Part shown: piece after piece, positions 3,491-3,964 of the stretch
Numbering within the stretch: the stretch's first letter is position 1
How the letters are laid out: each line of letters begins with the position of its first letter
Origin: a virus
Lineage: Duplodnaviria > Heunggongvirae > Uroviricota > Caudoviricetes
DNA length: 6,095 nt
Virus record (IMG/VR): IMGVR_UViG_2534682255_000031
Reading direction: 5' to 3' (one strand)
Made by a program: the position numbers and the translations under genes
Notes under the pieces: model-generated
The model's input: the letters and a program-made list of their open reading frames with translations, nothing else
Database searches by the model: none
What the model was told of the DNA's origin: nothing

Positions 3491-3964
3491 CTATTTCATA
3501 AAAATAATCCAGTGGGTTTTATCGTTTTTTCCTGTTCGTTGACCGATAACAGGTTTTCTGTCGGTCAGTACCAATATCTGGCGAACAGGTATTTGCGTTT
3601 CATTCCATTTAAAAATCAGAACGCCGGATGGACGCAACACACGAAAGGCTTCTTTAAATCCCTGCCGCAAATCATCACGCTAGGTATCTTTATTCAGCCG
3701 TCCATATTTCTTTCCCATCCAGGCGTTATCACCAACACGCTCAAGATGCGGAGGGTCGAATATAACCATCGAAAAAGATGCGTCTGCAAATGGTAGTGCA
3801 CGAAAATCAGCTATCAGATCAGGACTGATAATCAGGCGTCGTCCATCACACAATGTGTGCTCTTCCTTTCTGATATCGCTAAATATCGCCCGGTCGTCAT
3901 TCTTATCGAACCAGAACATGCGACTGCCACAGCACATGTCGAGGATTGCTGCATGTCCAGTCAC
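3491..3964 (-). pseudogene. Small SAM-dependent (amino-)methyltransferase, about 156 codons, interrupted by an in-frame TAG at 3680-3682; GTG start at 3964
   Basis: AAAGGAGG lies 6 nt upstream of GTG 3964. Motif I-like ILDMCCGSRMF and motif IV-like VIFDPPH precede the TAG; the same frame continues as RDDLRQGFKEAFRVLRPSGVLIFKWNE... to TAG at 3491-3493. The track shows only the 5' portion (3680-3997). Confidence 0.7.

Follow-up and report, generated by a model that had tools for sequence, protein, structure and literature searches.

The methyltransferase gene encoded on the minus strand of the 6,095-nucleotide stretch of DNA analysed here (the window) is, with high probability, a recent nonsense pseudogene fixed in one lineage. 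It is a 157-codon frame interrupted once, by an amber codon, within a prophage remnant of Escherichia coli O157:H7. The initial annotation had offered two readings, a recent nonsense pseudogene or a gene expressed full-length only in an amber-suppressor background. The first of these is favoured by the tryptophan codon TGG found in the orthologues, by the amber codon being the sole difference in 2.2 kb, and by the heavily deleted state of the surrounding element. The pseudogene call as such is already known from RefSeq, where PGAP describes the gene of O157:H7 strains TR01 and SS52, at the same coordinates, as 'SAM-dependent methyltransferase, pseudo, internal stop', and the proposed origin is a textbook mutational mechanism. 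The features on which the analysis draws are as follows.

3491-3964, minus strand: methyltransferase pseudogene, a 157-codon frame with a GTG start and one internal amber codon
3961-3978, minus strand: translation start region with Shine-Dalgarno sequence, GTG and overlapping TGA, from the sequence and the PGAP start coordinates
3920-3946, minus strand: ILDMCCGSR (residues 7-15), the region of motif I, with the SAM-binding loop that follows strand 1
3746-3757, minus strand: motif IV DPPH (residues 70-73), with D70, P71, P72 and H73 invariant in the alignment
3680-3682, minus strand: premature amber codon TAG at codon 95, ancestrally TGG (Trp95)
3680-3684, plus strand: former Dcm site, ancestrally CCAGG and now CTAGG, with the mutated base at 3681
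3494-3679, minus strand: now untranslated stretch of 62 codons that follows the premature stop and encodes the C-terminus of WP_000145671.1 with 100% identity
3961-4311, minus strand: 116-aa gene that precedes the methyltransferase in the same operon (WP_001242740.1, hypothetical protein with a YfdS-like N-terminus)
4302-4838, minus strand: intact yfdR 5'-deoxynucleotidase gene of the same leftward early operon
3186-3196 (about 3191), no strand: junction of a 1463-bp deletion relative to O111:H8, located by blastn, which marks the O157 remnant
5379-5389 (about 5384), no strand: yfdQ'/gpJ junction, where truncated yfdQ (DUF2303) abuts a fragment of the tail-tip gene gpJ

Translation of the minus strand over positions 3491-3997 yields one frame with a single internal stop. 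From the GTG at 3964-3962 it runs through 94 sense codons to the TAG at 3682-3680, continues for 62 more, and ends at a natural TAG (3493-3491) that is followed by another TAG four codons later. The Shine-Dalgarno sequence AAAGGAGG at 3978-3971 is separated from the GTG by a 6-nt spacer, and in the tetranucleotide GTGA (3964-3961) this start codon shares bases with the TGA that ends the upstream gene. The initial annotation had reported a single in-frame TAG in an otherwise intact frame, a strong Shine-Dalgarno sequence with a coupled GTG start, and a stop lying beyond motif IV (DPPH at 3757-3746), all of which the translation bears out. The further 62 codons of methyltransferase sequence that it described are not a chance reading frame either, since they match without a difference the C-terminal part of the intact protein WP_000145671.1 (157 aa). 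The 105-aa ORF that it cited does terminate at the TAG, but its length is mechanical: it is the longest mechanical ORF and begins at the upstream ATG 3997. The GTG is the start used by PGAP and by the orthologues, and thus a real truncated product would have 94 aa.

Codon 95 is TGG in O121:H19, in O111:H8, in the seawater isolate G5 and in an Stx2c-converting phage; the comparison with orthologues that had been proposed as a check thus returned a sense codon, TGG, in every intact copy examined. The gene differs from the O121:H19 copy by one base. Over the whole block 3191-5384 (2194 bp) the alignments with the O111:H8 and O121:H19 prophages contain one mismatch and no gaps, and reversion of base 3681 renders the block identical to that of O111:H8, so that the amber mutation is the only point change within it. 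The intact counterpart, WP_000145671.1, is encoded in the dusA prophages of O111:H8 and O121:H19 and also in O157:H7 NE 1092-2. It is the same gene with the same start and the same operon position (yfdP-yfdQ-yfdR-yfdS-like-methyltransferase), but it has TGG at codon 95, is annotated as an intact 157-aa class I SAM-dependent methyltransferase, and resides in prophages that, in the part of each compared here, retain the repressor and Cro region. Intact paralogues are present in Stx2c phages of O157:H7 as well.

The orthologue in phage PhiR42_1 (PV340562.1, 3001-3472) carries lesions of its own: K119 is replaced by an in-frame stop, the frame shifts near residue 145, and the annotation gives a shortened 'methyltransferase protein'. 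These independent lesions show that the gene decays repeatedly. Separate PHROGs families match only residues 2-93 or only residues 57-157, as truncated phage copies would.

The repaired protein matches PHROG 954, 'DNA methyltransferase', with E = 2e-86, its residues 3-157 aligning with profile positions 50-201 of 229. The Pfam model Methyltransf_11 is matched marginally (24.2 bits against a cut-off of 21.2, over only 22 residues), no NCBIfam model scored above its cut-off, and a sequence search of the PDB gave marginal matches only, the best with E = 0.04. The family is large, with 7470 matches at E ≤ 0.001 among 90%-identity clusters and 2008 representatives at 50% identity, and its closest matches are mostly enterobacterial. 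In an alignment of 43 diverse homologues (40-84% identity) thirteen columns are invariant: D9, D30, R32, P48, D70-P71-P72-H73, W95, E105, R108, K119 and W120. In motif I, the residues L8, C12 and G13 are conserved in at least 90% of the sequences. A motif IV of the DPPH type is the catalytic motif of exocyclic-amino methyltransferases, and the tetrapeptide found here agrees with the pattern (D/N/S)PP(Y/F/W/H) of those that act on nucleic acids.

Orthologue P0001 (96% identical) was modelled with AlphaFold2 at a pLDDT of 94.6. The model places the motif I strand at residues 7-9; Trp95 opens a helix at residues 95-109, after which follow strands at 110-121, 138-144 and 150-156. A Foldseek search of the PDB with this model returned class I methyltransferases throughout, with Trm11, Bud23, TrmM and M.TaqI at the top; the top matches have E values of about 1e-6 to 1e-4 and TM scores of 0.53-0.64 on the query, and most of them act on nucleic acids. 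Among the hallmarks of a class I Rossmann-fold methyltransferase, motif I is present in the gene studied here, the seven-stranded fold is predicted for the intact orthologue only, and the coding sequence is not complete, being interrupted by the amber codon at position 95. According to the model the 94-aa product lacks about 40% of the fold. With the helix and three strands missing, this fragment should be inactive.

Members of the family have lengths of 157 to about 170 aa, plus variants of about 248 aa, and the intact forms are single chains of about 155-250 aa. Neither the alignment nor the AlphaFold2 model contains an extra domain in the 157-aa chain. We infer that an intact family member would be an exocyclic-amino nucleic-acid methyltransferase of minimal, TRD-less build, in line with the modelled fold; literature searches for experimental data on the nucleic-acid substrate of the family found none. 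Trm11 (m2G10 of tRNA), M.TaqI (N6-adenine of DNA) and TrmM likewise combine a Rossmann fold with motif I preceding motif IV, and form a gamma-type group with the motif (D/N)PP(Y/F/H), which is DPPH here. In contrast to them, the present protein has only about 157 aa, without a THUMP or target-recognition domain, and is 15-20% identical in sequence. One close copy has been named 'TRM11 family methyltransferase' by PGAP. In the REBASE-based methyltransferase list of O111 strain 95NR1 the family is absent (PMC6602927); the genome of this strain contains two copies of the matching 61-mer.

Two identifications with described genes were rejected. The characterised orphan methyltransferase M.EcoGIX is plasmid-borne and single-strand-specific, and the K-12 gene yfdT is excluded by an empty tblastn search of CPS-53 with the repaired protein, YfdT and YfdM being unrelated to it. 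The members of about 248 aa (P0009, P0019, P0090 and P0113 among them) come from Enterobacter, Klebsiella, Citrobacter and Leclercia and share a conserved stretch of about 90 aa added at the C-terminus (…RIVELESLLL…HHQRRLKHHINRMWLEKMPV…).

The gene lies in a remnant of a lambdoid prophage that integrated into the 5' end of dusA. In SS52 (L008 11669-22435) the remnant measures about 10.8 kb (~11 kb), bounded by the dusA fragment on one side and, at the far end outside the window, by a tyrosine integrase gene adjoining intact dusA. Towards this far end lie also three DUF1076 genes, Lom and a DinI-like gene; tail-fibre genes are likewise part of the element. Positions 1-1422 of the window are chromosomal and contain yjbM/DUF2713 and the dusA 5' fragment; a duplicated dusA fragment of 105 bp lies on the window side of the remnant. 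Only these 1422 positions match strain Sakai, where the yjbM-dusA locus is uninterrupted and the element absent, which rules out its identification with Sakai prophage Sp17. The element matches 'Region 21' of the super-shedder O157:H7 strain SS17, a region of about 12 kb between yjbK and dusA that is absent from Sakai and EDL933 (PMC4321836), in chromosomal site and in the size of the remnant seen in SS52 and the window. The word 'methyltransferase' does not occur in the main text of that paper, and the pseudogene is not discussed there.

Fuller prophages occupy the same site in O111:H8, O121:H19 and the atypical O157:H7 strain NE 1092-2, with the gene order repressor/Cro, yfdP, yfdQ, yfdR, yfdS-like gene, methyltransferase, small genes, 3'-5' exonuclease, PrtN. 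Relative to these, the window has three lesions: the deletion at about 3191, the break at about 5384 and the amber codon. The first deletion truncates a Rv2179c-like 3'-5' exonuclease gene (2839-3177), whose N-terminus is missing. The joint of yfdQ with J implies the deletion of all that once separated the early-left operon from the tail genes; compared with the gene order of the intact prophage, the remnant is devoid of repressor, replication, lysis and head genes. It has lost the region that would hold the early promoter together with the repressor. A consensus scan for promoters and terminators over 3300-5600 found no sigma-70-like promoter on the minus strand, a weak negative, and we infer that the locus is probably transcribed little or not at all.

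Several smaller observations concern these junctions and the adjoining genes. A chimeric ORF of 65 aa (WP_000829415.1; 3147-3344) spans the 3191 junction, and the truncated yfdQ (4966-5384, minus strand) stands head-to-head with the C-terminal J fragment (5439-6095, plus strand). The 116-aa gene upstream of the methyltransferase has its first ~36 residues in common with K-12 YfdS. Towards the C-terminus it matches PHROGs 614 and 14548 and the PGAP label 'Eae protein' or ead/Ea22-like labels; it looks like a mosaic joint within a gene.

The distribution of the amber allele was traced with 61-mers in complete genomes. The TAG-centred 61-mer occurs exactly in 202 complete-genome records and with one to three mismatches in 189 more; among the inexact records, all copies examined in detail have TGG. 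A second 61-mer, placed over the 3191 deletion junction, has full coverage in exactly 202 genomes as well. The equal totals suggest that the O157:H7 remnant is the only carrier of the amber allele and is fixed for it, a correspondence of totals rather than of per-genome matching. The lesion is dated to the same time as the deletions by which the remnant is defined, or later.

The nature of the substitution points to its cause. On the plus strand the ancestral ACGCCAGGTAT has become ACGCTAGGTAT, and comparison with O111:H8 and O121:H19 identifies the changed base, 3681, as the internal cytosine of a CCAGG Dcm site. Dcm methylates the internal cytosine of CCWGG, and deamination of 5-methylcytosine yields thymine, the classic origin of amber hotspots. 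Amber hotspots at Dcm sites were reportedly found in lacI by Coulondre, Miller, Farabaugh and Gilbert in 1978. The same change, C to T at the internal cytosine of CCAGG giving TAG, is seen here; unlike the lacI mutant spectrum, it is a natural, lineage-fixed event in a prophage, with deamination deduced from the base change. The 2194-bp block contains only three CCWGG sites, that is six methylated cytosines, and deamination of three of the six would create amber codons. Given a nonsense transition, a chance coincidence with a methylated cytosine has a frequency of about 8% (3 of 37 possible ones), a figure to be read with the Dcm-site argument being partly post hoc. Of 5426 E. coli genomes, 5359 carry dcm and vsr at full length, O157:H7 F1273 and PNUSAE146131 among them, and the 67 genomes without dcm are fewer than the 202 carriers of TAG. 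The likely cause is a 5-methylcytosine deamination that would have escaped very-short-patch repair by Vsr.

The history of the gene may then be reconstructed as follows. A lambdoid prophage integrated at dusA carried an intact, TRD-less methyltransferase of 157 aa (DPPH, PHROG 954) in its early operon and decayed to the remnant of about 11 kb in one O157:H7 sublineage. A C-to-T transition at the Dcm-methylated cytosine of CCAGG then converted the TGG of Trp95 to the amber codon TAG. Translation from the GTG now stops after 94 residues, leaving a product that keeps motif I and DPPH and is predicted to lack the helix and the three strands that complete the Rossmann fold.

The loss could have been adaptive instead of neutral decay. 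With the immunity region gone, a costly TRD-less enzyme, possibly of low specificity, would have burdened the cell, and the amber allele would have swept the O157:H7 sublineage together with the remnant; we consider such a course improbable. On this view the loss of the repressor region would have deregulated an orphan methyltransferase that became harmful, and the nonsense allele would have been favoured. It is true that two other EHEC prophages differ from the 2194-bp block by no substitution but the nonsense mutation, and that the gene has been broken independently in PhiR42_1. A random substitution in the block creates a stop in only 3.2% of cases, and a transition in 1.7%, but this figure of about 3% is biased by ascertainment, the window having been chosen for its stop. 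A mutational hotspot, moreover, explains the change without selection. Deregulated expression is also difficult to reconcile with the deletion of the native early promoter region and with the outcome of the promoter scan, and intact copies coexist in O157:H7 within Stx2c prophages.

Full-length enzyme might be made by readthrough of the amber codon, either with a suppressor tRNA of the host or of a co-resident phage or as programmed readthrough. The intact frame beyond the stop and the strong start signals agree with this, yet both are equally expected of a very young pseudogene. In a suppressor-dependent or readthrough gene the stop should be conserved at the same position among orthologues; here TAG is confined to one clonal remnant, the other copies examined having TGG. 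The common suppressors would insert Gln, Tyr, Ser, Leu or Lys at the invariant Trp95 and so alter a conserved core residue, and a suppressor would also extend the C-terminus, the natural stop being TAG too. No tRNA gene occurs in the window. The supE44-type glnV(CUA) allele was found in 155 of 5424 genomes, and among the matches listed 60 of 60 are K-12 laboratory strains with chromosomes below 4.83 Mb; the literature, searched for amber suppressors of O157 and of natural isolates, yielded nothing of relevance. Expression in an amber-suppressor background, the second reading of the initial annotation, finds no support in these observations, and we regard readthrough as very unlikely.

It is extremely unlikely that the two halves of the gene form a split enzyme, in which the 94-aa fragment would assemble with a C-terminal fragment re-initiated at TTG 3670. 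An in-frame ORF of 59 aa does begin with this TTG (3670-3491), four codons after the stop, but no Shine-Dalgarno sequence precedes it, the invariant Trp95 belongs to neither fragment, and no other family member is so organised, the intact forms being single chains. Finally, the identical TAG 61-mer in 202 independent complete genomes, from many laboratories and platforms, excludes for practical purposes that the stop arose by faulty sequencing or assembly of the source genome.

The recent nonsense pseudogene favoured here confirms the RefSeq call and has little significance beyond bookkeeping, apart from being a clean natural example of an amber codon arising at a Dcm site. Strains of O157:H7 with the dusA remnant might be recognised by the TAG allele and the 3191 junction as lineage markers. 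Biological interest lies rather at the level of the family, in the substrate of a small DPPH methyltransferase that is widespread in enterobacterial prophages. If the adaptive-loss reading were true, it would follow that the PHROG 954 family is a minimal methyltransferase of nucleic acid, as yet uncharacterised, and its target would deserve identification.

Two conserved ORFs adjoin the attachment site on the plus strand, one of 178 aa (1567-2103; PHROG 4350) and one of 57 aa (2300-2473; PHROG 2741), for neither of which Pfam gave a match. NE 1092-2 has a Panacea-domain protein and a hypothetical protein in place of the 178-aa ORF, and the slot looks like a variable cargo spot. Over window positions 1-5716 SS52 differs from the window at only 8 positions, whereas TR01 has 145 differing positions and 11 gaps, arranged in blocks at 0-750 and 4000-5000. 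All 145 differences lie outside the methyltransferase gene, and this pattern suggests that TR01 was misassembled or has recombined locally. In the PGAP annotation of TR01 the yfdS-like gene is split in two, one piece being labelled pseudo.
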